DNA of 53,987 nt from IMG/VR virus record IMGVR_UViG_3300035015_000011, positions 1 to 53,987 of that record. One strand, 5' to 3'. This stretch comes from a virus. Taxonomy: Duplodnaviria; Caudoviricetes. The position numbers and the translations under genes are program-made. Below the pieces are notes generated by a model. It ran no database searches, was not told the DNA's origin, and was given only the letters and a program-made list of their open reading frames with translations. Position 1 is the first letter of the stretch. The number at the start of each line of letters is the position of its first letter. Below, piece by piece: positions 10,738 to 53,987 of the stretch.

Positions 10738-10772
10738 GGGGTCAATTATCCTCGCGGAATGTCCTGATGGAA

Positions 10773-14128: not shown

Positions 14129-14426
14129 CGCGCCGTCAAGGATTCTGCTCATCGTCGGACCTTATCCGGGTTTCGTGCGCGACTGGGCCCGACGCATGGG
14201 GCTTTCCGCAGCATTGGTGCGCGGCAGTGTGCGCATCGTCACCAAGCCCGGCCAATTGCGCGGCTGGCGCGCGGGCACGCTCTATCACGTCGTCGGTTCC
14301 GACCAGATGGACGGCGAGCAGAGGGGAGAGTTCGCCGCCGCGCTGAAGGTCTACGGCGAAAAGGGGCAGTTGCGATGTGCGACGCCTGATGATGTGCAAT
14401 CCGTTCTTGACGAGGTGACGGCATGA
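14121..14426 (+). CDS. Hypothetical protein
   Basis: Overlapping operon gene with GGGGAG RBS. Confidence 0.65.
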   Translation: MRDAPSRILLIVGPYPGFVRDWARRMGLSAALVRGSVRIVTKPGQLRGWRAGTLYHVVGSDQMDGEQRGEFAAALKVYGEKGQLRCATPDDVQSVLDEVTA

Positions 14427-38571: not shown

Positions 38572-39108
38572 ATGATCCGCATCGTTTCGATCGAAGATAC
38601 GGCTGAGCCGTATCGCGCGCCGGATCTCGGCTGGGATGGGGTCGTGGGGGATCTGATCCTCAATGCGCTGACGCATCCGACAGCGCCGGGGGACTTTCGC
38701 GCAGAGCAGGGGCTGGCAACGCAGATCCTGATCCATCTGATGACTGACCGGCGCGTCGAGGACAGCGAGCTGCGGCACGGCGAGGCCAATCGGGGCTGGC
38801 TGGGCGACAGCTTCGACATTCAGGACGGCGAGGGGCCGCTTGGTTCGCGGCTCTGGCTGCTGAGGCGCACGGCGATCACCGATCAGACGGCTGTGCTGGT
38901 CGAGGACTATGTGCGCGAGGCGCTGCAGCCGCTCATCGACCAGGAGGCAATTGCCTCGCTCGATGTGACCGTGACCGTCGACCGATCGGCCAACCGGGTC
39001 GACTACGTTGTGAATACCTATGGCCGCGATGGCGCGCGGTCCTTCGATGACAAATTCCAACTGTTCTGGGAGCAGATCAATGGCGTGGCAAATCCGCTCG
39101 CTCGATGA
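38572..39108 (+). CDS. Baseplate protein (Mu gp46-like)
   Basis: L.TDRR...RGWLGD...GSRLWLLRR...YVREALQPLI. Confidence 0.9.
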   Translation: MIRIVSIEDTAEPYRAPDLGWDGVVGDLILNALTHPTAPGDFRAEQGLATQILIHLMTDRRVEDSELRHGEANRGWLGDSFDIQDGEGPLGSRLWLLRRTAITDQTAVLVEDYVREALQPLIDQEAIASLDVTVTVDRSANRVDYVVNTYGRDGARSFDDKFQLFWEQINGVANPLAR

Positions 39109-40165
39109 CGCGTCGGCCGCGATCCGCGGTGCGTTCCGGCGCTTCCTTCCGGGCACGGATACGGCGCTCAAGAACAACTTCGTGACCGTCGTCGTGAAGG
39201 TTCTGGCGGGCTTGTCCCATGAGTTCGAGCTGCGCATGGGCTATCTCGCGCGGCAGCTCTTTGCCTCCACGGCAATGCTGGCTTTTCTCAGACTGCACGG
39301 GGCCGATGTCGCAATCTTCCAGAAGGGCGCGTCGGCGTCGTCGGGGTCTATCACGGGCGAGGGCGAGGCGAACCGGGTCTATCCTTCCGGCATACGCTTC
39401 GTGTCCGGCAACAACACCTATCTGTCGACGGCGCCCGCGCAGGCCTCGACGCTCGGCGTCGTCGTTTTCCCGGTCCAGTCGGAAGACAAGGGCGCATATA
39501 CCAATCGCGATGCGGGTGGCTTGCTGTCGCTCGCTGATCCCGCGCTCTACCCTACGCTCGGCACCAGTTTCACCGTTGGGGACGATGGACTGGGTGGCGG
39601 TGCCGATGTCGAAGATGTCGAGGATTTTCGAGCCCGCGTTCTGTTTCGCAAGGCAAATCCGCCGGGGGCTGGAAAGCTTTCCGACTATGAGCGCATCGTT
39701 CGCGAGGTGCCGGGGGTTCTCAAGGCATGGGCCTATCGCGACAGCCTGACGCCCAGCTTTCTCGTCGTGTACTTCCTGTTCGACGGACGCCCCAACCGGA
39801 TTCCAACCGAGGGCGACACGCTCGTCGTGCAGGCGGCGCTTGATGCGCAGCGGTTGATCCGGGTGAACGACAGCGTGGTGGAAGCGCCGACAGCGGTTGC
39901 CCTGAACCCCGTCATCGCCAACGTGACCAACGACACGGAAGCTGTACGCGCCGCGATCACAGCTGCAATCGAGGCAGTGCTGTACGAAAAGGCCAGGCCC
40001 GGCGTTGCCGGTGATGTCTTCGTCCTTTCGCGCAGCTGGATTGCCGAGGCGGTGAGCCAGGTGGTGGGCGAGGAGCGTCACACGCTGAACTGGCCCGCCG
40101 GGGACCTTCCCTACACGGGTGGGCAATATCCTGTCGTCGGAACGGTGAGCTTCGTGAATGAGTAG
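39080..40165 (+). CDS. Baseplate J / Mu gp47-like wedge protein
   Basis: GGGADVEDVEDFRARVL...PPGAG..SDY...EVPGV. Confidence 0.92.
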   Translation: MAWQIRSLDDASAAIRGAFRRFLPGTDTALKNNFVTVVVKVLAGLSHEFELRMGYLARQLFASTAMLAFLRLHGADVAIFQKGASASSGSITGEGEANRVYPSGIRFVSGNNTYLSTAPAQASTLGVVVFPVQSEDKGAYTNRDAGGLLSLADPALYPTLGTSFTVGDDGLGGGADVEDVEDFRARVLFRKANPPGAGKLSDYERIVREVPGVLKAWAYRDSLTPSFLVVYFLFDGRPNRIPTEGDTLVVQAALDAQRLIRVNDSVVEAPTAVALNPVIANVTNDTEAVRAAITAAIEAVLYEKARPGVAGDVFVLSRSWIAEAVSQVVGEERHTLNWPAGDLPYTGGQYPVVGTVSFVNE

Positions 40166-40943
40166 GAAGAATTCATTTTCGCACACTGTGACCAACAGCT
40201 TTACGGCGGAGGTTTCCGCTTCGGTCGGCGTGCCCTCGGATGCGCTGGCTGCGCCGGATAGCGACAGCCTTGTTACGGCGGGCCTGACCTTGTGGCCGCC
40301 GGGTGCGGCATGGGGTTCTCCGGACGGGCAGGCGGTGTCGCTGTCGTCGACCCTGGCCAAGTTCACGCGGGTGCTGCTCTCGCCTTTCGAATGGCTCTAT
40401 GCGCGGGCCTTCCGGCTGGCGCTGGAGGCCAATACGCAGACCGTATCGGAACTGCTGGCGGACTGGGAAGCGGAGCACGGGCTCCCGGAGAATTGCTTCA
40501 TCGGTGAGCAGTCGGCGAGCCAGCGGCTGACGGCGCTTCGCCGCAAGGTGATGGCGAGGCCGCTCGCCCATCCACAGGATTTCGTGCGGGTCGCGGCGGA
40601 CTTCGGTTTCGAGATCGAGATCGAAGAGCCGAACATCTTCGGATGCGGGTTTTCCGAGTGTGGTGGCTATCACGAGGCCGGGGCTGCGGCGGAAGAGGCC
40701 TTCATCACAGTGCGCGTCAGGGGCAGCGCCGAAAGCTTTTTCGAGGCTGGCATCTCCGAATGCGGCGCCGACCGGCTGTACGACGTCGTCGGGTCTTCCG
40801 ACGTGTTGTGCTTTCTGCGGCAGGAACTGCCGGGCTGGGTGGTGGCTGTCCCCGAAGCGTGGATCAACCTGGCTTACTGGGTCACCGAAGAACCGGCCTT
40901 CATGGTCGACGAATATGGCAACCGGCTGATGTTCCGGATCTGA
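40158..40943 (+). CDS. Baseplate protein Mu gp48 / YmfQ-like
   Basis: LWPPGAAW...ELLADWEAEHGLP..C...R. Confidence 0.85.
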   Translation: MSRKNSFSHTVTNSFTAEVSASVGVPSDALAAPDSDSLVTAGLTLWPPGAAWGSPDGQAVSLSSTLAKFTRVLLSPFEWLYARAFRLALEANTQTVSELLADWEAEHGLPENCFIGEQSASQRLTALRRKVMARPLAHPQDFVRVAADFGFEIEIEEPNIFGCGFSECGGYHEAGAAAEEAFITVRVRGSAESFFEAGISECGADRLYDVVGSSDVLCFLRQELPGWVVAVPEAWINLAYWVTEEPAFMVDEYGNRLMFRI

Positions 40944-40961: not shown

Positions 40962-41855
40962 ATGAGCGACTATGTCCAGCCCTATGGCGAGGGAGACCCG
41001 AACGCGCCCTACAAGGACAGGAACAGCGCGGCCGGAGAGCCTGGATCGCGTGTTCCGGCGCTGGCGATCGAGATGCCGCAGCGGGAAATCAAGACGGTGC
41101 TCCTGGCCGCCGGTCTGGTGCCAGACCGCACAGACCCGACGCAGCTCAATGCGGCTATCGATGCGAAGATTGCTCTGGCGACGGCCGGCGGAGAGAACCC
41201 GCTGAACGATCTGCTCGATCTCCTGCGGGCGCGCCTGCTCTTCTATCCCGAGATCGTCACCAGCGACGGGGCGTTCAACCTTTCCGTGCCGTCCACTGGA
41301 ACCGTGCGCATCCCTGCCGGTATCGTGATCAAGCATCGCGGCGTGTTTCCGATCACCACCCTGCAGCAGGATTTTGTCACTGTTGCCAACAAGACCTATC
41401 ACCTGCGCTACAGGTTCACTGGCACGCCCGGCTGGTCGCTGGTGGATGTTTCCGACAGCTCATACAACCCGTCCGCCCTGGCCGAGACCGACGCCAGCTT
41501 CGATACTGGTTATGACGACATGATCAGCCACAAGGTCGTGACCAGTCCGTCCAACGTGGCGACGATCACGCCGCTGGTGAACCTCGACCGCCTCATGGAT
41601 CGCCGCGACGTGACACTTTCCTACGGTTCGACGCCTGCGAATGGAATGACGGCAGCATTCACGGCCTCCTTCAACTGGGCTCGTACTCCGAAGGTTCCGC
41701 TGATCACCTGGACTTACCGCAGCCAGGTTGCGCCCATCAGCGACAATGACGAGCAGTTCACCCGGACGGTGTCCCGCTACGCAATCGCCGGCACGGCGAT
41801 GCTCGATTTTGCCGATGTCGCAGGGACCAACCTGCAGGTTTCGGCCTGGGCTTAA
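40962..41855 (+). CDS. Tail fibre protein 1 (baseplate-proximal)
   Basis: Y..P.G..DPNAPY...GS..PA.AIE.PQREI...AAGL.P...D.TQL..AI N-terminal anchor pattern. Confidence 0.8.
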   Translation: MSDYVQPYGEGDPNAPYKDRNSAAGEPGSRVPALAIEMPQREIKTVLLAAGLVPDRTDPTQLNAAIDAKIALATAGGENPLNDLLDLLRARLLFYPEIVTSDGAFNLSVPSTGTVRIPAGIVIKHRGVFPITTLQQDFVTVANKTYHLRYRFTGTPGWSLVDVSDSSYNPSALAETDASFDTGYDDMISHKVVTSPSNVATITPLVNLDRLMDRRDVTLSYGSTPANGMTAAFTASFNWARTPKVPLITWTYRSQVAPISDNDEQFTRTVSRYAIAGTAMLDFADVAGTNLQVSAWA

Positions 41856-41867: not shown

Positions 41868-42560
41868 ATGGAAGAAGAAAGACTTATCAGCGGCCTGGAC
41901 CCATTGCCTGGCGGTGCTGCCGAAGCAGGGGATCTCATACCGGCGTCGCGCGGTGGAGTGACGGGTCTCCTGTCGGTCGCAAGGGTACTTACGGCCGCCC
42001 AGAACATAGGGCTGACGATTCTCGGGGCGGCAAGCAAGTCCAGTCTCGTCGATGCAGACCTTATCGGAGTGTCCGACAGCGCCGATTCAAATGCGCTGAA
42101 AAAGACAACGCTGGCGCAACTGATCTCCAGCGTTTTCACCACGGCAAGGACCATCGCCAATGCTCAGTTCGCGGCGGCGACATTCAAGCTGTTCAATGCT
42201 GCAGGGACGCCAAGGGCACTCACATTCAATGTCAGCGCTCTTACCGCTGATCGCGTGCTCAATCTTCCGGATGGGAACGTGACGCTGCCAAGCGGAACGG
42301 TGATCACGTCCGCCGATGTGTTGCCGACCATCGCGGCGACAACTCCGGGGGCTGTCGGAACCTATGTTCAGGCACGGCAGAGCGTTACATCGACGGCTCG
42401 CGCGCTCGGTGCCCTGGTGGCGGGCAGCAACCTCGTCCCGACAAATGCGGACGGGTCCGGAACCGGCGCTGCTCTGACCGGGATGTGGTCGCTTGCCGGA
42501 ACGATCCCAAGTGCGACCGGCGCTGCTGCAAACACAGGCAACTGGCTGAGGGTGTCCTGA
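41868..42560 (+). CDS. Tail fibre protein 2 (distal / receptor-binding candidate)
   Basis: LTADRVLNLPD repeat; C-terminal AVGTY...GSNL...G.W...G...WLRVS tip; followed by a chaperone gene. Confidence 0.75.
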   Translation: MEEERLISGLDPLPGGAAEAGDLIPASRGGVTGLLSVARVLTAAQNIGLTILGAASKSSLVDADLIGVSDSADSNALKKTTLAQLISSVFTTARTIANAQFAAATFKLFNAAGTPRALTFNVSALTADRVLNLPDGNVTLPSGTVITSADVLPTIAATTPGAVGTYVQARQSVTSTARALGALVAGSNLVPTNADGSGTGAALTGMWSLAGTIPSATGAAANTGNWLRVS

Positions 42561-43036
42561 TGGATTTTCGAAACGCAGTCTATTCATCTGCTGACGGCCA
42601 GCAGATCGACATGGAAATTGACCATCCGGTTTTCGGGTGGGCGCCATTCACGGCGCGGCCTGACGATCCGGAGCCGCTGGGCCGCGATCTCTATGCCGCA
42701 GCCCTGCTGGGTTATGTCGCTGACTATGTGGAACCCGAGATCGAGCTGGAGACCCCGGCGGAAATATCGGACCGGCAGTTCTTCCACGTTCTTGCCCTGG
42801 ACGGGCTTATCAGCGAAGCCGAAGCGCTGGCCGCAGTCAAGACGGGAGACGCCCCGGCTGCGTTTGATGTGTTCATTGCCTCCTTGCCGGAAGCGGAGCG
42901 CTTCGGAGCCAGGATGCTGTTGGAGGGGGCGACAATGTTCCGCCGCGACCATCCGCTGACGAACGCCTTTGGCTCAATGTACGGCCTGTCGTCTGAAGAG
43001 ATCGATGATCTCTGGCGGCGAGCTTCAGATCTTTAG
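42560..43036 (+). CDS. Tail fibre assembly chaperone (Tfa-like)
   Basis: RNAVY...IDMEIDHPVFGWAPFTARPDDPEPLGRDLY N-terminal domain; C-terminal ISDRQF...F.RDHPL...IDDLWR.A; stop/start coupled to the fibre gene. Confidence 0.8.
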   Translation: MDFRNAVYSSADGQQIDMEIDHPVFGWAPFTARPDDPEPLGRDLYAAALLGYVADYVEPEIELETPAEISDRQFFHVLALDGLISEAEALAAVKTGDAPAAFDVFIASLPEAERFGARMLLEGATMFRRDHPLTNAFGSMYGLSSEEIDDLWRRASDL

Positions 43037-43076
43037 GCTCCAAGTCCCCTCAAAATTGAACATCAAGGACATCGTC

Positions 43077-43652
43077 ATGATTGCGAACCGCGCAGCGTTC
43101 TTCTCTGCCGTGCGCTCGTCGCTGTTTGGCGGCAAGCTCTCGGCAAGTCAGGTTGCCGGGATGGACGCCATCCTGGATGAATGGACGGTGCAGGGGCTCA
43201 CCGACCATCGCTGGCTTGCGTACATGCTGGCGACAACCATGCATGAAACGGCCGGCACAATGCAGCCGATCACCGAATACGGCGGCCGGAAGTACTTCGA
43301 CAAGTATGACACGGGAAGGCTCGCGAAAGAGCTTGGCAACACGCCCGAGGCTGATGGCGACGGTTTCCTCTATCGCGGCCGGGGCTTCGTGCAGATCACC
43401 GGGCGTGCCAACTACCGGAAGTTCGGTATCGAGGCAAATCCGGAAAAGGCGCTCGAACTTCCTACTGCCGTAAAGATCCTCTTCGAGGGAATGAAGAGCG
43501 GCGTTTTCACTGGTCGCAAGCTGTCAGACTATTTCAGTGGCCCGAAGGCTGACTGGATCAACGCGCGCCGCATCATCAACGGGACTGATCGCGCAGCTCA
43601 AATTGCGGATCTCGCCCAGCGTTTCCTGAAGGCGATCGAGGTTGCCCGATGA
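43077..43652 (+). CDS. Endolysin, glycoside hydrolase family 19-like
   Basis: LAYMLATTMHET...PITEYG...LGN...GDG..YRGRGFVQITGRANY...ARRIING. Confidence 0.9.
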   Translation: MIANRAAFFSAVRSSLFGGKLSASQVAGMDAILDEWTVQGLTDHRWLAYMLATTMHETAGTMQPITEYGGRKYFDKYDTGRLAKELGNTPEADGDGFLYRGRGFVQITGRANYRKFGIEANPEKALELPTAVKILFEGMKSGVFTGRKLSDYFSGPKADWINARRIINGTDRAAQIADLAQRFLKAIEVAR

Positions 43653-43966
43653 AGAAGGCAACCGGTGAGCCGGGCTGGACCTGGCGACGGGCGATCATCT
43701 TTCCGGTGGTGATATATGCCTGCTGGCAGCTGAGGCTTCTGATTGACGCCCCGGACACGAGGGTGAATGAGCGATTAGCCGATGGCTGGATGATCCTGAT
43801 TGCGGTTCTGGTGCTCGGCTATACGGGCTTTGCCACCGTGCAGGACGTCGCGGCGATCTGGCGGACGGGCACCGGGCTTCCCTATGCGCCGCAGAATCCG
43901 AACATTGGCAATAGCTTGAGCGCGCCCGGCATAACCGATGCGCCCGGGCCCCACCTGCAGCCGTAA
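43649..43966 (+). CDS. Putative holin (two TM helices)
   Basis: Coupled to the endolysin; two hydrophobic segments after W..RR. Confidence 0.55.
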   Translation: MKKATGEPGWTWRRAIIFPVVIYACWQLRLLIDAPDTRVNERLADGWMILIAVLVLGYTGFATVQDVAAIWRTGTGLPYAPQNPNIGNSLSAPGITDAPGPHLQP

Positions 43967-44034
43967 GGTTTGCCCTGCCGCCTTCGCCGTTCACATGAAA
44001 AATCGAGTTACCAGACAGAGAACAGGAGACTGTG

Positions 44035-44592
44035 ATGACCGATGCTATTTCCACTGCGCTCACGGCGGCCGATGCCAGCGTTCTGCGCGGGGGCGGGCTC
44101 ATGGAGCAGGCTGAAGCGCATGGCCGCTACGTCGTCGAGTGCATCGGCGCTGACGGCGAGGTCAAGTGGCGTGAGGAGATCGAGAACCTCGTAACCACTG
44201 CCGGCAAGAACGACGCGCTTGACAAGTATCTTTCAGGCTCTGCCTATACCGCCGCCTGGTTTCTCGGTCTCGTCGACGGTGCCACGACGCCGACCTATGC
44301 GGCGGCAGACACCGCCGCCAGCCATGCAGGCTGGACGGAAAACACGGCCTATTCGAACGCGACCCGCCCGGCGCCGACCTTCAATGCGGCGGCGTCCGGC
44401 GCCAAGGCGACGACGGGGACGGCATTCAGCATCAACGCGAATGGGCAGACCATTGCCGGCGTGTTCCTGATTTCCAACTCCACCAAGGCTGGCACGACGG
44501 GCGTGCTCTATTCGGTCGGCGCATTTACCGGCGGCAACAAGGCTGTGGGTAGCGGCGACACGCTGAACGTCACCTGGACCGGCTCGCTGTAA
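44035..44592 (+). CDS. Virion structural protein, fibre-subunit-like
   Basis: AGGAG RBS; Thr/Ala/Gly-rich, beta-rich; ENLVTTAG...GDTLNVTW. Confidence 0.7.
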   Translation: MTDAISTALTAADASVLRGGGLMEQAEAHGRYVVECIGADGEVKWREEIENLVTTAGKNDALDKYLSGSAYTAAWFLGLVDGATTPTYAAADTAASHAGWTENTAYSNATRPAPTFNAAASGAKATTGTAFSINANGQTIAGVFLISNSTKAGTTGVLYSVGAFTGGNKAVGSGDTLNVTWTGSL

Positions 44593-44612
44593 TCGAGACG
44601 GCGGATTAACCG

Positions 44613-46244
44613 ATGGCGATCACGCGGGTAGGGCAGAACACAGGCACGACGACGGCGTCGCTTCCGACGCTGGCAATCGGTGACCTGATCGTCGTTGCCG
44701 CCTATCGCGACGGCAGCGCCACGGCACCGACCGTTCCCTCTGCCTTTTCCGGCGGCGTCATCACCACAGGTGGCTCCAACACCAATTCCATGGTGTTGGC
44801 GGCGCTCGAGGTGGCGACCGGATCCGAGACTGTGGGCACGTGGACCAATGCCACGAGCTTGATCGCGGTTGTTTACCGTGGGGTCGACCTGACGGCGCCC
44901 GGCGGCACCGTGCAGACCGGCGGGTCATCGAATGCGATGCAGTATGGCACCATTACGGTGCAGGATACGACCGGTGGCAACTGCCTGGTTGCCTTTGGTG
45001 GCAATCGTTCCAACAGCGTCACCATCGAGACGCCACCCTCCGGCTTCTCGCTTGTTACCACTGTTTCTGACTCGACGGACGAGATGGGCTGCTTCGAGCG
45101 ATTTGGCGTCGCAGCCGGGTCTGTTGCTCTCGGCGGCGTTACAGTTGCGGTCGTGGCTTCCGGCTATCGCACTGCCGTGGTCGAATTGCTGCCTTTGGCT
45201 GGCGGCGGCACGACCTACAATGAAGCCGCCAGTGAAGCAGGGGCTGCGGCCGAGAGTGCATCACAGACCCTGACGGCCAACGGTGCGATTGCCGAGGCCG
45301 CAGCAGCGGGGCATTCCCAGACGGCAGCGCTGACCGGCGTTGTGACAGCGAGCGAGGCTGCAAGTGCTTCGGATCTATTTGCCGGGGCGGTTTCGACATC
45401 GGTCGGGCTGAGCGAGGCTGCGAGCGCCGGCAACGTCCAGGTGAGCGGGCTTGCGCTTTCGGCCTCTGTTGCGGAGTCGGTGAGCGCCGCTGACACATCG
45501 GTGCCGAGCACGAGCCCGACAGGGACCGCAAGCGCAACGGCGAATGCTACCGAGACGAGCGCAGCCGCGGCGACGCTTGCTGCCAGTTCAACCGATGCGG
45601 CTGTGGCTGTCGACGTTTCGACGCGAACGGTCGTCCTCAGCACGAGCCTCAGCGAGGCGGGGACGGCGGGCGAGATAACTTCCAGCGCTCGCACGACGAC
45701 GGCGGTTTCTGCCGAGGTGGCCAGCGCCACGGATAGTACAAGTCGGGCAGTTGCGACCTCCGCCACAGGTTCCGATGGGGTGACGGCGACGGATGCCAGT
45801 CTCGCGAGCCGCAGCACGGTGTCTGTGCTTGCAGAGCCCGCTGCAGCGACAGACCAGGGGCAGGCGGCCAAGGCAAGTGCGACTGGCGGCAGCGAGGCGG
45901 CTGAAGCTGGTGGTGCCGGCAGTGCATCGCTGCAGGCAGCGGGCACCAGCATCGAGGCTGCCGACGCCAGTGATGCGGCGATGGCAACGCGAGTTGTCGA
46001 CGCCGCCATAGTCGAGGCTGCTTCGGCGCTGGACAGCGCGGTTGTGGCCAGTGCGGAGGCAAACGCCCTGCGCATCGTCGTGAGAGCGCCGGCGCCGCTG
46101 CACCAGGTGGTGCGCGCGCCGGAGCAACAGAAAATTCAAGCTCGTTCGTTTCTGCTGTGCTGTATCGCGCGGGCGGCAGATCCGCCGAGATACATGGCGC
46201 GAGCGAGCGGGCCGCTGCGCCTGGTGGCGCGTGACGCATTTTAG
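44613..46244 (+). CDS. Ala/Ser/Thr-rich protein with 14 tandem 20-aa repeats
   Basis: About 200-aa globular N-domain, then a strict 20-aa period (mostly acidic residues at positions 8 and 14) at 45213-46052. Confidence 0.8.
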   Translation: MAITRVGQNTGTTTASLPTLAIGDLIVVAAYRDGSATAPTVPSAFSGGVITTGGSNTNSMVLAALEVATGSETVGTWTNATSLIAVVYRGVDLTAPGGTVQTGGSSNAMQYGTITVQDTTGGNCLVAFGGNRSNSVTIETPPSGFSLVTTVSDSTDEMGCFERFGVAAGSVALGGVTVAVVASGYRTAVVELLPLAGGGTTYNEAASEAGAAAESASQTLTANGAIAEAAAAGHSQTAALTGVVTASEAASASDLFAGAVSTSVGLSEAASAGNVQVSGLALSASVAESVSAADTSVPSTSPTGTASATANATETSAAAATLAASSTDAAVAVDVSTRTVVLSTSLSEAGTAGEITSSARTTTAVSAEVASATDSTSRAVATSATGSDGVTATDASLASRSTVSVLAEPAAATDQGQAAKASATGGSEAAEAGGAGSASLQAAGTSIEAADASDAAMATRVVDAAIVEAASALDSAVVASAEANALRIVVRAPAPLHQVVRAPEQQKIQARSFLLCCIARAADPPRYMARASGPLRLVARDAF

Positions 46245-46253
46245 GAGGCAGGC

Positions 46254-46577
46254 GTGGATCCCAAGGTCATAAACCGAGGCTATGGCTTCAAGCTGGGGTT
46301 CAGCCTGGAGAAGGCGGACGGCACGGCGCAGGTGGTGTCCGGAACGACGGCGACTTGGAAGATTGCCGCCAGCCAGGCTGGGCCCGTGCTGATCGAGCGT
46401 GCCGGCATCACCCCGTCGACCGTGTCAGGGAAGACAATCGCCGCGCTGGCGCTGACGGCGCTTGAAACGAAAGCGCTTGTTCCGGGGCAATATTACCACC
46501 AGCTGGCGGTGACGCTTTCCGGCGGTGAGCCGGAAATCCATTTCAAGGGCTGGCTGGCCGTCGAAGAGCGGCTGTGA
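46254..46577 (+). CDS. Small beta-sandwich (BppU-N-like) structural protein
   Basis: AGGAGG RBS; INRG...L....T..L.PG.YY.QL.V...G.L.V pattern. Confidence 0.6.
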   Translation: MDPKVINRGYGFKLGFSLEKADGTAQVVSGTTATWKIAASQAGPVLIERAGITPSTVSGKTIAALALTALETKALVPGQYYHQLAVTLSGGEPEIHFKGWLAVEERL

Positions 46578-46969
46578 TGAACCCGTTTTCCCAGATCATC
46601 ATGGCGGCCGTCTTTGCCGCCGGGATTGCCGCAGGTTCTGCGGGCTATTCGCTATACGACCGGCTCATCGACGACCCTGCCGTGCGGCGGGCTGGCGTGG
46701 CCCATGGTGTGCAGGCCGAGCGGCTGGCCTGGCAGGAGGCGCGCAACCGGGCGGAGGTTGAAAAGGCGCAACGACTGGCGGAAGCGCAGGCAAAGATTAC
46801 GGCTGCTGACCGGGCGCTGCAGGACCAGAGGGCGAATGAGCGACGGCGAGCTGACGCGATCCGCCGCGCATACGAGGAGCGGAAGACTGATGACAAGGCT
46901 GATCCCGTGCCTGGTTGCGATTGCAGCCAGTACGCTCTTCCTGACTGGGTGCGGAAGGAGCTTGAATGA
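46574..46969 (+). CDS. i-spanin (Rz-like)
   Basis: N-terminal TM helix, coiled coil, C-terminal Cys. Confidence 0.75.
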   Translation: MMNPFSQIIMAAVFAAGIAAGSAGYSLYDRLIDDPAVRRAGVAHGVQAERLAWQEARNRAEVEKAQRLAEAQAKITAADRALQDQRANERRRADAIRRAYEERKTDDKADPVPGCDCSQYALPDWVRKELE

Positions 46970-47180
46970 ATTCCGTGCAGTTCAAGCACTGGTGCCGGAT
47001 CAGAAGCCGGTTGTCCCGGCGGCTGTTCTGGCCAAGCCGGAAGGCAAGACGCAGATTCCAGAGCGCGCGCCACTGGTGACGCAATGGGAACTCTGGGCTG
47101 AAGACCGCGACAGGCTGGATGCCTGCGTGATGCTGTCGACGGCGCAGCGCATGACGATCGAAGCCCTGCAGGAGCGATAG
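46890..47180 (+). CDS. o-spanin lipoprotein (Rz1-like)
   Basis: MTRLIPCLVAIAASTLFLTGC lipobox, Pro-rich, overlaps the i-spanin 3' end. Confidence 0.75.
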   Translation: MTRLIPCLVAIAASTLFLTGCGRSLNEFRAVQALVPDQKPVVPAAVLAKPEGKTQIPERAPLVTQWELWAEDRDRLDACVMLSTAQRMTIEALQER

Positions 47181-47181
47181 T

Positions 47182-47535
47182 ATGGATGGCACTGACCTCA
47201 TCATGAGGCAACTCGAGATGATGAACGGACGTCTCGATACGATCGCAGCGGATGGTTCGAAACGCGGGCATGATCTCTGGGAAAAGCTGAACGAGCAGGG
47301 CCGGGACCTCGCCGTCCTCACGCATCGATTTGGTAGCCTGGAAGAAAGCGTCAACGGCCAGGCCGTGACGCTGAGCGAGTATCAGGATCTCAAGAGACGA
47401 GCCGAGGGCGCCGGATGGCTCGGGCAAAGGCTTCTGCGGTTCGGCTGGATCATTCTCGCGGCTGCAGGCTGGGTCTATGCCAGCTGGACAAGCATCGTCA
47501 GCATGCTCAAGTGGTTGATCGGGAAGGTTCCATGA
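47182..47535 (+). CDS. Coiled-coil protein with C-terminal TM helix
   Basis: Heptad-like N-terminus and hydrophobic C-terminus; lysis-region location. Confidence 0.7.
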   Translation: MDGTDLIMRQLEMMNGRLDTIAADGSKRGHDLWEKLNEQGRDLAVLTHRFGSLEESVNGQAVTLSEYQDLKRRAEGAGWLGQRLLRFGWIILAAAGWVYASWTSIVSMLKWLIGKVP

Positions 47536-47759
47536 ACAAGATCGCTCTCATTCTGGCAGTTGTCCCATCGATTGCGCTCGCAGATCTGCCGCCTGACATC
47601 GATGATCGTCCGGCAGAACCGCCGGCCCTGTCCCAGGTGGCGGTGCCCTGTCTTCGCGAGAAGGACGAGCGGGGCTATGTCGTGACATGGGAGATCCGCA
47701 ACACGGTGACGGGCGAAAGAAAGAGTGTGGGAAGTCAAGAAGTCAGGCAGATATGCTAA
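47532..47759 (+). CDS. Small secreted hypothetical protein
   Basis: MNKIALILAVVPSIALA signal peptide; ATGA coupling. Confidence 0.6.
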   Translation: MNKIALILAVVPSIALADLPPDIDDRPAEPPALSQVAVPCLREKDERGYVVTWEIRNTVTGERKSVGSQEVRQIC

Positions 47760-47881
47760 CGCATGCAGGTGGCATCAGCTTGGTGGATTGCGGGAGGAGA
47801 CAGTTTCCGGTAGTGACCCACACAGCTACCCTCGACCAGGGTGCGCAGTTGCTTGACGACGGGGATTCCAGGGGCACTTCT

Positions 47882-49894
47882 TTGGCGACTTCAGCCTATC
47901 GGCCGGAAATTGATGGCCTACGCGCTATAGCGGTCATCTCGGTCGTCATCTACCATGCTGAACTGAGCCTGTTTGGATATAGTTTCCTGCCCGGCGGTTT
48001 TCTGGGCGTTGATGTTTTCTTTGTAATATCGGGCTACCTGATCGGCAGGATCGTCATCGGCGACGTGTCTGCCGGACGGTTCAGCTTCAGGGACTTTTAC
48101 GAGCGACGGGTTCGGCGGATAGCTCCCGCGTTGTTGTTGGTCATCGGGGCGACAATCCCGTTTGCGTGGTCACTGCTGACGATCGAACAGTTTCGAAGTT
48201 TCGGCTTGAGCATCATCTCATCGCTCACCTTTGTTTCCAACTTCCAGTTCTGGCTGGAGGATGGGTATGCATCGGAGGCCAGTTCGCTCAAGCCTCTGCT
48301 TCATACCTGGAGCCTGGCAATCGAAGAGCAGTTCTACCTCTTCTTCCCTGCCGCCGTGCTCCTGGCTTTCGCTCTCGGTCGCAGAGTGCTTACTGCGGCG
48401 CTGCTGATTGCGCTCGGCCTCTCGATCCTTGTTGCGGAATATCTGACTTATCGAGCGCCATCCGCATCTTTCTATCTTCTGCCAAGCCGTCTGTGGGAGC
48501 TTCTCGCGGGGACTGTGCTCGCATGGCTGGAGATCCGGGGTGTGCGCCGCGTCGGAGGACTTTCTGCCCGGCTCCTGATGATCGCAGCCCTGGCCGTCCT
48601 TGTCGCGTATGTCTGCTTTCCGCTGATAACGCTTGACCGGCATCCGGGATTTGAAACCGTGCCCGTCGTGATCGCCGTCATGGCCATGATCTGGGCAGAC
48701 GGGAAGGGCGGCCGGGCGTACGGGCTGCTCTCTGCTCGGCCTGTTGTTGGGTTGGGGTTGATTTCCTATTCGTTCTATCTCTGGCATCAGCCGGTGTTTG
48801 CTCTCGCGCGAAACGCAAATGTCGACGAATTGTCGTCGTTTCTGAAAATCCTGCTGGTATTTCTATCCGGGGCTCTGGCATGGGCCAGCTGGAAGTTTGT
48901 GGAGACACCCTTCAGGAGCAAGGCAAAGGTACCAAGCCGGGTCCTCTGGTCGGCTTCCGGCTGCGGTCTTGGGCTGATGATCGTCTGCGGGGCCTATTTC
49001 GCCAAGGATGGCCTTCCAATGCGGTATCCTGAATCCGTCCGCTACCAGCCTGTCCAAGAGTGGAAGATCCTCAAGCAGGGTGGACAGCCGTGCCACACCG
49101 AACTTGCGAGTTTTTCCTGTCAGTTCGATCTTTCTGGAGCGGGACGCCCGTGGATGCTCGTCGGTGACAGCCATGCAAGCGTCTTGGGGCCTGCTCTCCT
49201 CGATGGCCTGAAGCAAAAGGCCAGCCGCCTGACGACGTGGACCTGGGGTGGCTGCCCGGTCATCTTCGATGTCGATTATGCGGTCTACAATTATGAAGGC
49301 GAACAGTGCGCCGCGCGCAACATCGAGGTCAGAAAGGCATTGGAAGCGGCGCCGCCCAGTGTTGTCGTCTATGCGGCCCGTATGCCTCTTTGGCTGTCAG
49401 CGGAAAGATTCAACAACGAAGAAGGCGGTGTCGAGGCCGGAACAGCTTTGAAGCTTGCCGTCAAAAACTCGGACGGGGCGACTGTGCCACAGGCCGTGAC
49501 GGAGACGCTTCAATCCATCATAGAGATGGGCCACGAGTTGATTGTGGTCTATCCTGTTCCTGAGGTTGGATGGAGCGTGCCGCGCGCGCTCAACCGTCTC
49601 ACCCCTAAAACTCCGAAATTGGCAGAGGAATGGCTGGCTCGCCAAGGCGTGACCACCTCGCTGGAGGTTTTCCGGCGCCGTAGTGCCGTGGCGTATGACG
49701 CATATGACGCGATCGGTGCCTTGCCGAACGTTCACCGGGTCTACCCGGAGCATGTTTTTTGCAGCGAGGTTTCCATGCGCTGTAAAACGCACGACGTCCG
49801 GTCTGTCTGGTACTCCGATGATGACCACCTTTCACGAGCTGGCGCAGACAAGGTCGTTTCCCAAATTTTTCGTGTGATTTCGAATTCGCTCTAG
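47882..49894 (+). CDS. O-acyltransferase, AT3 plus SGNH domain (OafA/YrhL-like)
   Basis: YRPEIDGLRAIAV, GFLGVDVFFVISGYLI, HTWSLAIEEQFY, SYSFYLWHQP; SGNH GDSHA and DDDH; TTG start inferred. Confidence 0.93.
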   Translation: MATSAYRPEIDGLRAIAVISVVIYHAELSLFGYSFLPGGFLGVDVFFVISGYLIGRIVIGDVSAGRFSFRDFYERRVRRIAPALLLVIGATIPFAWSLLTIEQFRSFGLSIISSLTFVSNFQFWLEDGYASEASSLKPLLHTWSLAIEEQFYLFFPAAVLLAFALGRRVLTAALLIALGLSILVAEYLTYRAPSASFYLLPSRLWELLAGTVLAWLEIRGVRRVGGLSARLLMIAALAVLVAYVCFPLITLDRHPGFETVPVVIAVMAMIWADGKGGRAYGLLSARPVVGLGLISYSFYLWHQPVFALARNANVDELSSFLKILLVFLSGALAWASWKFVETPFRSKAKVPSRVLWSASGCGLGLMIVCGAYFAKDGLPMRYPESVRYQPVQEWKILKQGGQPCHTELASFSCQFDLSGAGRPWMLVGDSHASVLGPALLDGLKQKASRLTTWTWGGCPVIFDVDYAVYNYEGEQCAARNIEVRKALEAAPPSVVVYAARMPLWLSAERFNNEEGGVEAGTALKLAVKNSDGATVPQAVTETLQSIIEMGHELIVVYPVPEVGWSVPRALNRLTPKTPKLAEEWLARQGVTTSLEVFRRRSAVAYDAYDAIGALPNVHRVYPEHVFCSEVSMRCKTHDVRSVWYSDDDHLSRAGADKVVSQIFRVISNSL

Positions 49895-49901
49895 GTGGAC
49901 T

Positions 49902-50183
49902 TCAGGTGCCAGGTTCGCGCCCGAGCTTCCACCTGATCAAGTCGGGAAAGCCGACGCCGCAGACCTCATTGAGCCGCGTGACATCGTTCGATTTTTCGCA
50001 GGTCGATTCGAAGGCCTTGCGCAGCTGCATGAAGGTGAAGTCCGGGCCGTGCCGCTCGATCAGGCCCTTGATGCCGTAGCGGCCGACGCGTCCGCATTTG
50101 CTGCAGGCGACCTCAACCGTCGGATAGGGATAGTCGCAGAGCCTCGAATGATTGCTGTCGGGCAGGGGGATCTGGCGGGTCAT
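49902..50183 (-). CDS. Small Zn-binding hypothetical protein
   Basis: CSKC...C...C; coupled to the upstream gene. Confidence 0.7.
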   Translation of the reverse strand: MTRQIPLPDSNHSRLCDYPYPTVEVACSKCGRVGRYGIKGLIERHGPDFTFMQLRKAFESTCEKSNDVTRLNEVCGVGFPDLIRWKLGREPGT

Positions 50184-50407
50184 CGCCGGAATTGCTCCCG
50201 GATCTTTGCCAGCATGCGGTCGTTCTCGCCGATCGCCAGCATGCGATTTTCCGCAATGCTGATGGCCGCCTCCAGCGCTTCAATCTCTCCCCATCCAGCC
50301 GCTACGGCATTCTCGATGATCTGGAGCACGGCCGCCTCCAAGGCCTCCTGTGCGTCCAGGAAACGATCCGGGTGTTCGGGCGGGCGTGGTGGCGGGGTGA
50401 TGGGCAT
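50180..50407 (-). CDS. Small helical hypothetical protein
   Basis: ITPP...HPDR..D.QEALE...AVAAGW.E.EA pattern; start at 50407 or 50434. Confidence 0.7.
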   Translation of the reverse strand: MPITPPPRPPEHPDRFLDAQEALEAAVLQIIENAVAAGWGEIEALEAAISIAENRMLAIGENDRMLAKIREQFRR

Positions 50408-50512
50408 GAGCGAAGATATGGGTCGCGAGATCATCGTGGCAAGGTATTCGCTCTTCGATTGAAAAATGACAGGCTACACGCTAAGGCTACTATCTATACT
50501 CTTGGAGGCTGA

Positions 50513-51238
50513 GTGCTAGTGGACATAAAGATTCTCGGTGTACGGAATCCAAGGTGGGAGAATGCGACCAGTATCTACTGTGAAGTTATTGCAGCGCACT
50601 GGAACGGCTGGTTGCCCTTCTCGGCTTCCTTGAATGACCCTGAGCCTCATGGCCGACAACTGTACGAAGATCTTGTTTCCGGTGTGCACGGACCCATAGC
50701 CACTGCCTTGGCAGTGGAGACGCCGGAACGGCTTGAAGATGATGCTGGTGGAGGTCTTGCTAAGTTCTGGCCCGACGCTGATGAATTTCTTCGCGAGGCG
50801 AATGCCGAAAATGCGAGGGGGACCAGCCGCGGTATGTGTCTCGTCTGGACTGCCATGGTTGAAATCGCGCTGAGAGAGAAGTTGCCCGCTTATCTGGCGG
50901 AGCGCGGGAAGAAGTTTAGTGACTTTAGAAAACCTGATGGGAAAAAGTACGGAACGGGCTTCTATGACGTTATTGAGGTTGCAGAGGCTTGTGAACTGAT
51001 AAACGCCGATACTGCTCGGCATCTGCATATACTTCGAGACGTGAGAAACGTTTGTGCGCATCAATGGCGGCTGGATTTTTCAAACCCGGAAGTAGCAAAG
51101 CTGCTGCCCAAATTTGAGGTTCTCCGCGACGAACTCTTCCCGAGCCTGATCATTTCACATGATTTCGAGTTTCTAATCCGGATGCTCGTAACCTCGACGT
51201 CCGCGAAAATTGTGGGTGAGTTGCTATATTCATCCTGA
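50513..51238 (+). CDS. Fusion of a tail-fibre-assembly-chaperone-like N-domain and an MtlR/HEPN-like C-domain (putative anti-phage RNase)
   Basis: N-terminal GWLPFSASLNDPEPHGRQLY vs GWAPFTARPDDPEPLGRDLY in 42560-43036; C-terminal SRG...LV..AMVE..L...F...I..A...LI......L..LRDVRNVCAH; GGAGG RBS; low GC. Confidence 0.75.
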   Translation: MLVDIKILGVRNPRWENATSIYCEVIAAHWNGWLPFSASLNDPEPHGRQLYEDLVSGVHGPIATALAVETPERLEDDAGGGLAKFWPDADEFLREANAENARGTSRGMCLVWTAMVEIALREKLPAYLAERGKKFSDFRKPDGKKYGTGFYDVIEVAEACELINADTARHLHILRDVRNVCAHQWRLDFSNPEVAKLLPKFEVLRDELFPSLIISHDFEFLIRMLVTSTSAKIVGELLYSS

Positions 51239-51248
51239 AGAGGGAAGG

Positions 51249-51647
51249 TCAGTCACACCACGGGCGGCGTTTGCCTGTCCATGGGCGTGCAAGTCCCTCG
51301 GCGATCAATAGCTCGCCGAGATCGACGCCATCGATGCCGACCACTGCCAAGGTTCTTCCGTATTTGTCTTTCAGCCTGCCCCTATCGCCCCGGAGAATAT
51401 TGATTGTTCCGGCCGCAAGGAGGTTCGCAACACGCTGCTTAGCAATTTGACCAAGCCTACGTTCTGCATCGCACTGGGCATGGCGGATCTCGGGGGTGTC
51501 GATGTTTAGTATGCGGATGGTCTCGCCGTTGACCTCGATCGTGTCGCCATCAATGACGCGCATGGCAGCAGCCGGGGCGTGGGTGGCCGCCAAGGCGGAA
51601 AGCAGCGCGGCGAATAGGGCGGAGCGAATTGTCTGTCGTGTTCTCAT
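51249..51647 (-). CDS. Thermonuclease (SNase-like) with signal peptide
   Basis: VIDGDTI...IRILNIDTPE...DKYGRTLA...LIAEGLA. Confidence 0.92.
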   Translation of the reverse strand: MRTRQTIRSALFAALLSALAATHAPAAAMRVIDGDTIEVNGETIRILNIDTPEIRHAQCDAERRLGQIAKQRVANLLAAGTINILRGDRGRLKDKYGRTLAVVGIDGVDLGELLIAEGLARPWTGKRRPWCD

Positions 51648-51649
51648 GA

Positions 51650-51664
51650 GAACGTCTTGCGAAC
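51650..51664 (-). promoter_or_regulatory. Alphaproteobacterial LexA (SOS) box
   Basis: GAAC-gtcttgc-GAAC (GTTC-N7-GTTC on the minus strand), 2 bp upstream of the thermonuclease ATG. Confidence 0.65.
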
Positions 51665-51670
51665 CCGATT

Positions 51671-51700
51671 TGCAAAACACAAGAGTGAACCTGCAAAACA
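51671..51700. repeat. TGCAAAACA direct repeat, candidate integrase arm-type sites
   Basis: Copies at 51671-51679 and 51692-51700, about 40-70 bp before the tRNA. Confidence 0.45.
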
Positions 51701-51742
51701 TGGCCTTGATTTTCTCCGCCAAACCATTGAGAACGCTGGCAT

Positions 51743-51828
51743 GCGGACGTGGCGAAACTGGTAGACGCAAGAGACTTAAAATCTCTCGGCCTCAGGTCAT
51801 GCGGGTTCGATCCCCGCCGTCCGCACCA
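51743..51828 (+). tRNA. tRNA-Leu (anticodon TAA), likely attR
   Basis: GCGGACG/CGTCCGC acceptor stem plus ACCA; anticodon arm AGAGA-CTTAAAA-TCTCT; long variable arm; T-loop GGTTCGATCC. Confidence 0.96.
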
Positions 51829-52343: not shown

Positions 52344-53987
52344 CTAGCGGCTCAGGTTTACCGATCGCAGGAAGCTCTGCGCCTGCATTGAGCAGAGACG
52401 CTGATCGCCACCGCATCGCGCTTGCACCTTTTCGATCTGCTTCAGCCTCCCGCTGGGTTTCACGCCTGCGAACTTCGTCAGAAGAGAGGCCGCCTCTTCC
52501 ACCGTCACTCGCACTTTGGGCTTGACCGAAGGGCCTTCGAAATTCCTCCACATCAGCAATGGTGTGATGAAATCCGGCTCATCGATCGTTTCCAGCACTC
52601 TCTGAGCGTAGTGCTTCGCAAAGGCGGGATGGTGATCACCATAGGCAAGGATAGTGATTGGATAGGGGGCGGAACGGGCGAAGTTGAGGACGGCTGTCAG
52701 CGCTGTCACGCTGTCGTTCAGCCGGTTCACGTAATCAGCAAGAGCTGGACGGTCGGCCTTCGCAAGGTCGTAGGGACCCGGATACCTTACGGATAGGCGG
52801 CTGAGACCATGCGGGCCATGATTCCAATTGGTGGAGACGAAATAGGCGCGGGGCCCGGTTCTTGGGCTTTTAAGCGCTTCGAGAAGTTTCCTGTAGATCA
52901 GGAGATCGTGCAGTTCTTCCCATTTGTCGGGAAGCTCGAGTGAAGAAAAGTCACGGAAGTCGTCGAACCCGTATCTGCGGAAGGCGGTCCTCACGCCCGA
53001 GAAATCTCCGTTCAGGGAATAGAACACATGATTTTCGTATCCTAGAGATTTGAGGTCGTTGCCGAGGCAGCTTTTGAAATGAGGGGCGACATTGACGTGC
53101 GGCTGAAGGCCTCCCCAGCCGAATAGCTGATGATTGACGGAGCAGAGAAGTTCGAATTCCGTCACGACGCTGTTGCCTCCCCAGGTGTGGACCTGCATCT
53201 GCGTGCTCCAGCTCTCAAGCGGCGATGCTATCACCTTGGCAAGCGGCGGCATGTCAGCGAAAGCCGCTTCGAACTGCGGGTCGAAAACCGATTCGAGATG
53301 GACGATGATAATGTCAGGGCAGTTCCCGCAAGATCTAGCAGCCGGACCGATGGGCGCTGGCGGCCAATTCGCCGCATCGGCCGAGAGAGTGTGGGTCAAG
53401 CTGATACTTGCAGAAAGCCCGGCGACCATAGCCGAGACCCGCAAAGGGCCGCGGTCTGCGGTGACACGAGCGGGCATCTGGCGCCTTATCGCATCCATGT
53501 AGCCGCTCGACATGAAGATCTCAGTTGCTGCGATCGAAAGGCACAAAAGCGTCACCCCGACGAAAGCCCTGATGCGAACCGGAGCGGCAGGACGCTCCAA
53601 ACGCCAGGAAACACCGCTCGACAGCATAAGCACTACAAGGAAGCCGGCCGCGGTGGAGGCCGCCGCCGAATAGGTAAAGAAGATGCCGAATTCGAGGTCC
53701 TGTATGAATTGCAGGATGATGTCGAGATCATGCTGATGAAGATGCTGGCGGAGTTCGGCAAACTTGAAGCGGTCGGCCTGGTCGATCCCGACTAGAAGCC
53801 CGGTGATGACGAGCGATGTGCCAAGGGGGCGCCCAGATATACCGAGCAACGTCAGTTGCCATAAAGACAGAAGACTGAAGACGGAAAGCAACCCATCCCA
53901 TGTGTATTCCCGGCTTGATGCAACTGCATTTACCACGCCGAAGATCAGGCAGGCCACAACCAGACCTGCGAGTTTACTGCGCCCCAT
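52344..53987 (-). CDS. LTA synthase / sulfatase-like membrane protein (probably host)
   Basis: N-terminal TM helices; HLESVFDP, WGGNS..TEFE, NHGPH, YGDHHP metal-binding motifs. Confidence 0.85.
   Translation of the reverse strand: MGRSKLAGLVVACLIFGVVNAVASSREYTWDGLLSVFSLLSLWQLTLLGISGRPLGTSLVITGLLVGIDQADRFKFAELRQHLHQHDLDIILQFIQDLEFGIFFTYSAAASTAAGFLVVLMLSSGVSWRLERPAAPVRIRAFVGVTLLCLSIAATEIFMSSGYMDAIRRQMPARVTADRGPLRVSAMVAGLSASISLTHTLSADAANWPPAPIGPAARSCGNCPDIIIVHLESVFDPQFEAAFADMPPLAKVIASPLESWSTQMQVHTWGGNSVVTEFELLCSVNHQLFGWGGLQPHVNVAPHFKSCLGNDLKSLGYENHVFYSLNGDFSGVRTAFRRYGFDDFRDFSSLELPDKWEELHDLLIYRKLLEALKSPRTGPRAYFVSTNWNHGPHGLSRLSVRYPGPYDLAKADRPALADYVNRLNDSVTALTAVLNFARSAPYPITILAYGDHHPAFAKHYAQRVLETIDEPDFITPLLMWRNFEGPSVKPKVRVTVEEAASLLTKFAGVKPSGRLKQIEKVQARCGGDQRLCSMQAQSFLRSVNLSR

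Follow-up and report, generated by a model that had tools for sequence, protein, structure and literature searches.

The analysed stretch of DNA (the window) is the entire virus record IMGVR_UViG_3300035015_000011, 53,987 bases long, and the gene in question is the open reading frame (ORF) P0001 at 50513-51238 on the plus strand. P0001 joins a module of the type found in tail-fibre assembly (Tfa) chaperones to a C-terminal domain of the HEPN superfamily. We read it as a candidate single-chain, mobile-element-borne abortive-infection ribonuclease (RNase) that would be triggered by tail-fibre protein, and we put the probability of this reading at about 0.55. The β3-α N-domain would act as the sensor and recognise the C-terminal tip of newly made tail fibre late in infection, and the 158-residue MtlR/DUF4145-type HEPN domain, with an intact R-N-x-x-A-H motif, would act as the effector. 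The features of the gene are as follows.

50466-50493, plus strand: sigma-70-like promoter match ATGACA-16-TACTAT, a consensus match only, in the 78-nt divergent intergenic gap
50504-50508, plus strand: ribosome-binding site GGAGG, 4 nt ahead of the GTG, a direct sequence reading
50513-51238, plus strand: P0001, 241 amino acids, with a Tfa-type N-domain, a linker and a HEPN domain
50513-50710, plus strand: N-domain, residues 1-66, the proposed fibre-binding sensor
50711-50761, plus strand: linker, residues 67-83, of varying length and sequence over the family, where the alignment is gappy
50762-51235, plus strand: HEPN domain, residues 84-241, all-helical and MtlR/DUF4145-like
51044-51061, plus strand: Rx4H HEPN catalytic motif R178-N-V-C-A-H183, from the family alignment

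The start codon of P0001 is the GTG, and homologues begin at the same point. Between 49800 and 51900, 2 sigma-70-like sites were seen, against 0.9 ± 1.0 in shuffles. The full-length AlphaFold2 (AF2) model showed a predicted local distance difference test score (pLDDT) of 94.1 and a predicted template modelling score (pTM) of 0.88, and the region of the linker gave block-mean pLDDT values of 65-86 at residues 61-90. The GC content of the gene was 0.518, compared with 0.633 ± 0.024 (minimum 0.554) in 726-nt segments over 1100-47500, and is therefore foreign to the carrier phage. At third codon positions the GC content was 0.537 in the gene and 0.65-0.68 in the tail genes. Both neighbours, 50180-50434 and 51249-51770, lie on the minus strand. 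Between the Tfa-like gene of the phage and the start of this gene lie 7.5 kb with lysis and other genes. The original prediction, made from the letters of the sequence, had described a gene with its own ribosome-binding site, opposed to both neighbours, about 7.5 kb from the tail genes and AT-richer than the rest, and each of these points was found again here.

The N-domain showed similarity to the Tfa-like protein of the same phage, which follows the resident distal fibre gene.

41868-42560, plus strand: resident distal tail-fibre protein, PHROG 19294 'tail fiber protein'; some homologues carry Pfam PF18454
42560-43036, plus strand: resident Tfa-like protein P0002, directly after the fibre genes, with a C-domain matching phrog_6034

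In a BLASTP alignment (E = 4e-8), 19/46 positions were identical between residues 32-76 of P0001 and residues 26-71 of its resident Tfa-like counterpart. Both proteins matched PHROG 1141 and PHROG 1795 ('tail fiber protein'), P0001 over residues 5-65 with E-values of 3.5e-10 and 5.2e-10 and the resident protein with 3.3e-4 and 3.1e-5, respectively. A hidden Markov model (HMM) derived from the fusion family's N-domains alone retrieved the resident Tfa-like ORF among 1032 ORFs (E = 2.3e-6). By these comparisons the similarity, which had been proposed in the original prediction, is far above chance. In the N-domain tree, which was built by a quick method and is poorly resolved (2/136 branches starred), P0001 grouped with other fusion proteins and not with the resident Tfa; the N-domain is therefore probably not a recent copy of the resident phage chaperone. 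The resolution of this tree is insufficient to tell whether the fusion arose once.

A word-index search with P0001 gave 3 relatives only, and an exhaustive profile search gave 2221 cluster representatives at E ≤ 0.001. Among the profile matches listed, most were proteins of 66-170 amino acids that aligned only over the N-domain. All 56 short N-domain relatives matched both PHROG 1141 and PHROG 1795, and 8-14 of the 56 matched each of five tail-fibre-assembly PHROGs. The Pfam families Caudo_TAP and Phage_tail_APC were each detected in 7/56. When coordinates were checked for ten proteins, four showed Caudo_TAP or Phage_tail_APC at residues ~61-138, behind the N-domain, and the other six had no Pfam match. 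The placement of the PHROG, Caudo_TAP and Phage_tail_APC matches thus puts the N-domain at the N-terminal position of genuine Tfa proteins. Neighbours of residues ~3-80 in the ESM Atlas and BFVD were likewise short phage proteins, some of them named tail-fibre assembly protein or tail assembly chaperone. No match to Caudo_TAP or Phage_tail_APC at E ≤ 1 was observed in P0001 itself. In a search for longer N-domain fusions (423-2000 amino acids) none was found, which is weak evidence.

In the AF2 model the N-domain consists of three β-strands (residues 7-15, 20-27 and 33-39) followed by a helix (45-56), contains one cysteine, and gave a pLDDT of 90.6 when modelled alone. In the solved Tfa cases (phage Mu; Pam3 gp25), a variable N-terminal domain binds the fibre and a conserved C-terminal helical domain trimerises (PMC9608196). 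The HEPN domain of P0001 stands where Tfa proteins have their trimerising C-terminal part.

The C-terminal domain was assigned from conservation, profile matches and fold. Among 50 aligned full-length relatives, 23-56% identical to P0001, R178 was invariant (50/50), and N179, A182 and H183 were conserved in at least 90%. A second conserved block included the invariant N97 together with E99 and R106, both at least 90% conserved. The Rx4H pattern was present in nearly all full-length relatives, so the R-N-V-C-A-H at residues 178-183 that the original prediction had singled out is a feature of the family. Pfam analysis of the 50 relatives gave DUF4145 in 31 (best E = 2.5e-8), MtlR in 7, Abi_2 in 3, and HEPN_RiboL-PSP and HEPN_Cthe2314 in 1 each. 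P0001 showed no NCBIfam match.

Residues 82-239 were helical in the AF2 model. VIA-align against 48,161 chains gave YggD (Z 12.0) and MtlR (Z 10.8 and 10.6) as best matches, followed by HEPN 2hsb (10.6), HEPN-MNT 5yep (9.9), Csm6 (8.9), the Gifsy-1 HepS bound to the lambda J tail tip (9oik; 8.7 over 146 residues) and HEPN-MNT 7ae2 (8.6); helical bundles can reach Z ~13 by chance, and the fold alone is not decisive. The top Foldseek matches were also MtlR, YggD and HEPN proteins (top 6kcr), with a best E-value of 1.6e-3 and none at or below 0.001. The fold match counts because the profile matches and the motif agree with it. The family profile matched MtlR among the PDB sequences with E = 5.6e-4, and it matched HepS 9oij weakly (E = 0.0087), over 56 residues around the RNxxAH motif. 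Taken together, the profiles and the modelled fold indicate that P0001 is a member of the HEPN superfamily, nearest to its DUF4145 and MtlR branches, and the MtlR-like pattern noticed earlier is borne out by them. The original prediction had suggested separate fold searches for the two domains; the fold matches of the C-domain agreed with it through YggD, MtlR and HEPN, and the search with the N-domain alone gave no convincing match.

A complex of the N-domain with the resident trimeric fibre had also been suggested, and we modelled it with three copies of the distal fibre protein (13-row alignment) and three copies of residues 1-77 of P0001 (41-row alignment). The 3:3 model showed an interface score (ipSAE) of 0.81 (runs 0.82, 0.81 and 0.79), and the best of 3 controls showed 0.00. 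Contact agreement between runs was at least 71%, and partner pLDDT was at least 80. On the fibre side the modelled interface involved residues 141-230. The N-domain contributed residues 1-5, 7, 16-17, 20, 22, 25, 27, 29-30, 34-39, 41-44 and 46-47, which include the most conserved N-domain positions of the family (P35, F36, A38, D42 and G47). The model supports binding of the N-domain to the C-terminal region of the trimeric resident fibre. Memory of a like complex is a less likely, though possible, source of this score, because no solved Tfa was matched by the N-domain. A close cousin of a true partner would pass as well; the model therefore says that the module type fits the fibre-tip type, and does not name the physiological trigger.

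The fusion was not confined to the window. The 153 collected proteins comprised 65 with both domains, 79 with the N-domain only and 9 with the C-domain only. Some of the short N-only and C-only entries are probably fragments; P0069, for example, is nearly identical to the N-terminus of P0006. Judged from the 65 proteins with both domains, the fusion of a Tfa-type N-domain with HEPN is a real family. Full-length copies were present in 9 species-representative genomes of Alpha- and Gammaproteobacteria (Amaricoccus, Rheinheimera, Halomonas, Pseudocitrobacter, Budvicia, Ensifer, Brucella haematophila and two metagenome-assembled genomes) and in 3 further viral contigs. In all four viral records, the window included, a contig end is no more than about 6 kb from the gene. 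The copy of Salipiger bermudensis (L001 9986-10761) is split into ORFs at 9986-10417 and 10486-10761, which is either a frameshift or a sequencing error.

The neighbours of the fusion gene differed between carriers. Apart from two or three unrelated coincidences, no shared neighbour of at least 60 amino acids was found over 16 loci and the window (BLASTP 1e-8), and none of at least 70 amino acids over 13 loci and the window (phmmer 1e-4). An integrase-like ORF lies 5 kb from the fusion gene in locus L003, an S24 repressor-like ORF lies 2.4 kb from it in L017, and L018 contains an endolysin-like ORF. Carrier L002 has a siphovirus-type tape-measure and fibre module, with the fusion gene three ORFs past the fibre gene. 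By these surroundings the fusion gene is a solo, mobile gene on temperate elements. Searches of 50,697 deposited phage records gave no full-length copy, as 0/312 and 0/242 matching records covered 80% of the query, and neither did BFVD, where all 7 matches at E ≤ 0.001 were short N-domain proteins. The Pseudocitrobacter homologue gave no blastn match to E. coli genomes.

The closest known system in layout is RAZR (PD-T7-4), which consists of a ~65-residue zinc-finger sensor, a linker at residues 66-79 and a DUF4145 HEPN domain, and becomes active when it assembles around phage portal or Gp77 rings (PMC13017515). Its sensor is the most variable part, and swapping the sensor swaps the specificity (PMC13017515). 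RAZR resembles P0001 in being a single polypeptide of similar size, with an N-terminal sensor of ~65 residues, a short linker and a C-terminal DUF4145-type HEPN domain with conserved R and H. RAZR acts by abortive infection and binds an oligomeric phage structural protein, and the same is proposed for P0001. The sensors differ, being a Cys4 zinc ribbon in RAZR and a β3-α module of Tfa origin in P0001, and so do the triggers, which are a 12- or 24-mer ring in RAZR and, in our proposal, a trimeric fibre tip. P0001 was not assigned to RAZR, as it has no zinc finger and gave no profile match. PDB sequence searches with the family profile and with P0099 returned no RAZR chain among their matches, and RAZR was compared by description only.

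P0099 is a metagenomic cluster representative of 265 amino acids whose HEPN C-domain is the same (E = 1.7e-44 against the HMM of the family C-domain). The first 115 residues differ and show CxC...CxxC, by eye a possible zinc ribbon, in a RAZR-like layout; phmmer of P0099 against PDB sequences gave nothing relevant. This arrangement hints at sensor swapping on one HEPN chassis.

HepS, from the Salmonella prophage Gifsy-1, is a partner-less HEPN protein whose resting tetramer has mis-set R and H residues (PMC13043305). A 32-residue piece of the tail-tip protein J activates it by binding to it directly; HepS then cuts tRNA anticodon loops, and its carrier prophage escapes through a J variant (PMC13043305). 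Like P0001, HepS (about 210 residues) is prophage-borne and partner-less and has an RNxxAH-type motif; its trigger is a late tail-tip or fibre-type protein bound directly, and a similar trigger is proposed for P0001. HepS lacks a separate sensor domain and uses its own N- and C-terminal strands to form a sheet with the J peptide, whereas P0001 has an added N-domain of 66 residues. HepS binds the siphovirus central fibre J as a monomer, whereas P0001 was modelled 3:3 on a side-fibre tip. The homology between P0001 and HepS, as far as profiles suggest it, is weak, and P0001 was not classed as HepS because of the extra domain and the marginal homology.

Tfa proteins (Caudo_TAP PF02413, Phage_tail_APC PF16778) share with P0001 the homologous N-terminal module and, for P0001 in the model, the C-terminal region of the fibre as client. 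P0001 is unlike them in that HEPN replaces the C-terminal Tfa domain, the gene does not lie directly after a fibre gene, and its composition is foreign. It was not taken for a Tfa, since both the C-terminal Tfa domain and the chaperone gene position are absent. MtlR/YggD (PF05068) and DUF4145 (PF13643) proteins are the best structural and Pfam matches of the family but have no N-terminal Tfa module. AbiD/AbiF (Abi_2) was also set aside, the score of P0001 being under the curated cut-off.

Two further systems touch on tail chaperones. A bacterial Schlafen tRNase is triggered by the T5 tail assembly chaperone (review, PMC13434031). According to that review, Schlafen tRNases combine a fused variable sensor with an anticodon-type RNase and oligomerise on the trigger, as is proposed for P0001 (PMC13434031). 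They have a Schlafen nuclease fold and an Ig-like sensor, compared with HEPN and a Tfa-type sensor in P0001, and there the chaperone is the trigger, whereas the sensor of P0001 is derived from a chaperone (PMC13434031). Side-fibre alleles and their chaperones set the sensitivity to type II Thoeris (bioRxiv 10.64898/2026.06.04.730250).

The original prediction recognised no named system in this architecture. That view has to be toned down, since HepS and RAZR already establish the principle: the concept of a single-chain RNase that senses structural proteins is known from both. The chaperone-derived sensor appears new. Our literature search, with subscription papers and supplements outside its reach, gave no description of a Tfa-HEPN fusion among the matches listed. 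It is possible that the tables of homologues in the supplements to the HepS and RAZR papers list related architectures.

HEPN active sites need dimers, in which two Rx4H motifs form a composite site. For P0001 we propose the following course. The protein would be made from its own promoter in the lysogen and would be inactive at rest. When the late genes of a phage with a matching fibre are switched on, several N-domains would dock on the fibre tip, 3:3 in our model. Docking would gather or re-orient the HEPN domains, and two Rx4H motifs would then make up a composite active site, a step suggested by HEPN enzymology and by the RAZR and HepS precedents. The enzyme would then cut tRNA or other single-stranded RNA, translation would stop, and the infection would abort.

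A bolder form of this proposal is possible, but we hold it only tentatively. In it, the captured client-binding domain of a chaperone serves as an immune receptor that reads trimeric fibre tips, the RNase is activated in a lattice as in RAZR, and the receptors are modular, with P0099-type sensors as alternatives. Since 3-fold tips and 2-fold HEPN dimers cannot form a closed assembly, an open lattice would grow from the bound complexes and switch on the RNase.

Several observations weigh against the fibre-triggered defence reading. Taken alone, P0001 stayed under the Pfam cut-offs, with 17.9 bits against 25.6 for Abi_2 (E = 0.0041, residues 156-187 only) and 14.5 bits against 23.1 for DUF4145 (E = 0.037). 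The PADLOC scan (version 2.0.0, which presumably includes a PD-T7-4 model) returned AbiD alone at E ≤ 1 (E = 0.0045) and no other model, so that P0001 is not PD-T7-4 by the PADLOC model. The N-domain alone had a best VIA-align match in the PDB of Z 4.0 (chromodomains) and no Foldseek match at E ≤ 0.001, an absence that does not show a new fold. As it did not match the solved Tfa N-domains, fibre binding is argued from its position in Tfa proteins and from the model. The ipSAE mark was reached by 58/80 solved complexes and 2/110 mismatched pairs in calibration, counts that hold only roughly because this job used its own alignments and 3+3 copies. A second N-domain gene was present in only 1 of 14 sources (the window), within the sequence examined, and the link to a resident Tfa is thus not general. 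There is a symmetry mismatch between the 2-fold HEPN site and the trimeric fibre scaffold. Defence, RNase activity and triggering by fibre are, for P0001, what we infer from these analyses.

The modelled client is the carrier's own fibre, so the sensor should fire on prophage induction. The original prediction had a superinfecting phage as the trigger; docking on a fibre tip is seen in the model, and the fibre modelled is that of the carrier. Self-triggering could possibly be avoided if the resident Tfa-like protein, with its like interface segment, competes for the tip, or if the true target is a cousin of this fibre; a role in the carrier's own late programme is a third possibility.

In that last case P0001 would be a fibre-coupled RNase or RNA-binding protein serving shut-off of host or early mRNA, or timing. 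Such a role would fit the docking of the N-domain on the carrier's own fibre in the model, the interface segment being the part most alike between P0001 and the resident Tfa-like protein, and the strand that the gene shares with the late genes. The foreign GC content of the gene, its own ribosome-binding site and promoter-like site, and the two minus-strand genes that split it from the late operon argue the other way. The carriers are moreover unrelated, and no second N-domain gene occurred in 13/14 sources. A lytic function would be expected in isolated phages, yet the 50,697 phage records and BFVD held no full-length copy. We therefore regard this role as unlikely. Somewhat less probable again is a variant tail-fibre chaperone, in which the helical C-domain merely substitutes for the Tfa trimerisation domain and the protein folds or caps the fibre. 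The N-domain is the client-binding module of Tfa, and the 3:3 model on the fibre tip is like the Tfa-fibre complexes (PMC9608196), but a scaffold role leaves the near-invariant Rx4H of the 50 relatives unexplained, and P0001 lacks a Caudo_TAP or Phage_tail_APC match. The gene lies 7.5 kb from the fibre genes here and three ORFs from the fibre gene in L002, and the canonical position is already filled by a Tfa-like gene in this phage. The 16.8 kb of L003 that were examined contain the integrase-like ORF and gave no phmmer match to the fibre ORFs of the window or L002.

P0001 could also be an addiction or toxin-antitoxin toxin, or a constitutively regulated HEPN RNase; the N-domain would then have no connection with fibres and would serve as a regulatory or autoinhibitory lid. 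HEPN domains are frequent among toxins, the fold matches include the HEPN-MNT toxins 5yep (Z 9.9) and 7ae2 (Z 8.6), and two small overlapping minus-strand ORFs lie just upstream at 49902-50434. No neighbour was conserved over 13 loci and the window, and there is therefore no candidate antitoxin; the N-domain, for its part, is homologous to a fibre-chaperone module and docked on fibre in the model with controls at 0.00. The toxin explanation seems to us about as improbable as the variant chaperone. MtlR is a chromosomal regulator linked to the mannitol operon and HPr, and the helical domain might by analogy be non-catalytic, binding protein or nucleic acid and regulating transcription. YggD and MtlR were indeed the best fold matches (Z 10.6-12.0; Foldseek top 6kcr), and 7/50 relatives matched Pfam MtlR. 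The strict conservation of R-N-x-x-A-H, the mobile-element context with no sugar operon, and the higher count of DUF4145 than of MtlR (31 vs 7 of 50) make this the least probable of the explanations considered; DUF4145 is an active RNase in RAZR (PMC13017515).

How single-chain RNases sense phage structural proteins directly has been worked out very recently, in HepS and RAZR. If the fibre-triggered defence reading is right, the P0001 family would add a sensor of legible origin, the client-binding head of a viral fibre chaperone, and with it a concrete trigger hypothesis of fibre tip plus sensor. It would show that immune receptors can arise in nature from viral domains that have been captured. 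Matching the type of chaperone N-domain to the type of fibre tip might make it possible to predict which phages are sensed, and if the receptor family is modular, specificity could be read from the phage chaperone repertoire. The model also raises the question of how a prophage carries a sensor that is apparently able to bind its own fibre.

The other genes of the window that bear on its gene order are the following.

3564-4778, minus strand: DNA polymerase III beta sliding clamp, three Pfam domains, E = 1e-20 to 1e-24
39020-40943: baseplate wedge proteins
40962-41855: fibre protein
42969-43652: endolysin
47687-49894, plus strand: AT3-SGNH acyltransferase, Pfam E = 4e-27 and 1.4e-40
49902-50183, minus strand: 93-residue Cys-containing ORF, overlapping the ORF 50180-50434 by 4 nt
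50180-50434, minus strand: 84-residue protein of unknown function, PHROG 37486 match
51249-51770, minus strand: staphylococcal-nuclease homologue, Pfam SNase E = 2e-10
51743-51828, plus strand: tRNA-Leu(TAA), 505 nt downstream of the P0001 gene
52344-53987, minus strand: membrane sulfatase-family protein, E = 8.5e-17, running off the right end

The left end of the record contains a truncated integrase, the sliding clamp, a single-stranded DNA-binding protein and an S24 repressor. The tail module consists of myovirus-type baseplate and fibre genes, and further phage ORFs lie between the endolysin and the acyltransferase. The original prediction had placed the P0001 gene in right-end cargo. Acyltransferase morons and small PHROG-matching ORFs to the left of the gene agree with this placement, and a location in the right-end cargo of a prophage is plausible. 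The integrase is cut by the left contig end, and attL must lie beyond it. An empty-site test with the sulfatase-family protein 52344-53987 found no relative of it among the genome contigs, and blastn of 43600-51400 against phages gave a single match, to one small ORF of a Nostoc phage, and nothing on the phage ends. The acyltransferase and the sulfatase-family protein are of glycan-modifying type and may form a serotype-conversion cargo block.

The tRNA-Leu(TAA) could be the host tRNA of the attachment site, or cargo of the phage or of an island. It is oriented with its 5' end towards the prophage, an unusual arrangement for an integration site with the integrase at the far end. The long TTG-started ORF of the nuclease 51249-51770 overlaps this tRNA gene, and its true start is for that reason probably internal; started at an internal Met, the nuclease shows an apparent signal peptide by eye. 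The small ORF 49902-50183 matched a hypothetical gene of Nostoc phage Nsp-JY10 in blastn, with 75% DNA identity over 281 nt, a cyanophage-type match in an apparently rhizobial-type prophage.

Some observations were made in the other carriers. In L002, a 111-residue ORF at 8997-9332, two ORFs after the fibre gene, matched the C-terminal part of PHROG 6034 (E = 6e-4) and has no N-domain; PHROG 6034 is also the C-domain match of the Tfa-like protein of the window. Large ORFs in L003 and L017 resemble P4-type primases, by eye only. In L007 (Budvicia diplopodorum), two direct copies of an ORF of ~214 residues (4343-4987 and 14138-14782), 9.8 kb apart, flank the homologue, with an ABC-transporter-like operon (by eye) between them, and a relative of this ORF is present at L006 8923-9561.

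Near the left end of the window, a 196-nt unit occurs in three direct copies at 1821-2967, 92-98% identical, with spacings of 369 and 582 nt. These repeats fall within a 562-residue ORF at 1647-3335 that showed weak DUF2894 and AraC-HTH matches.

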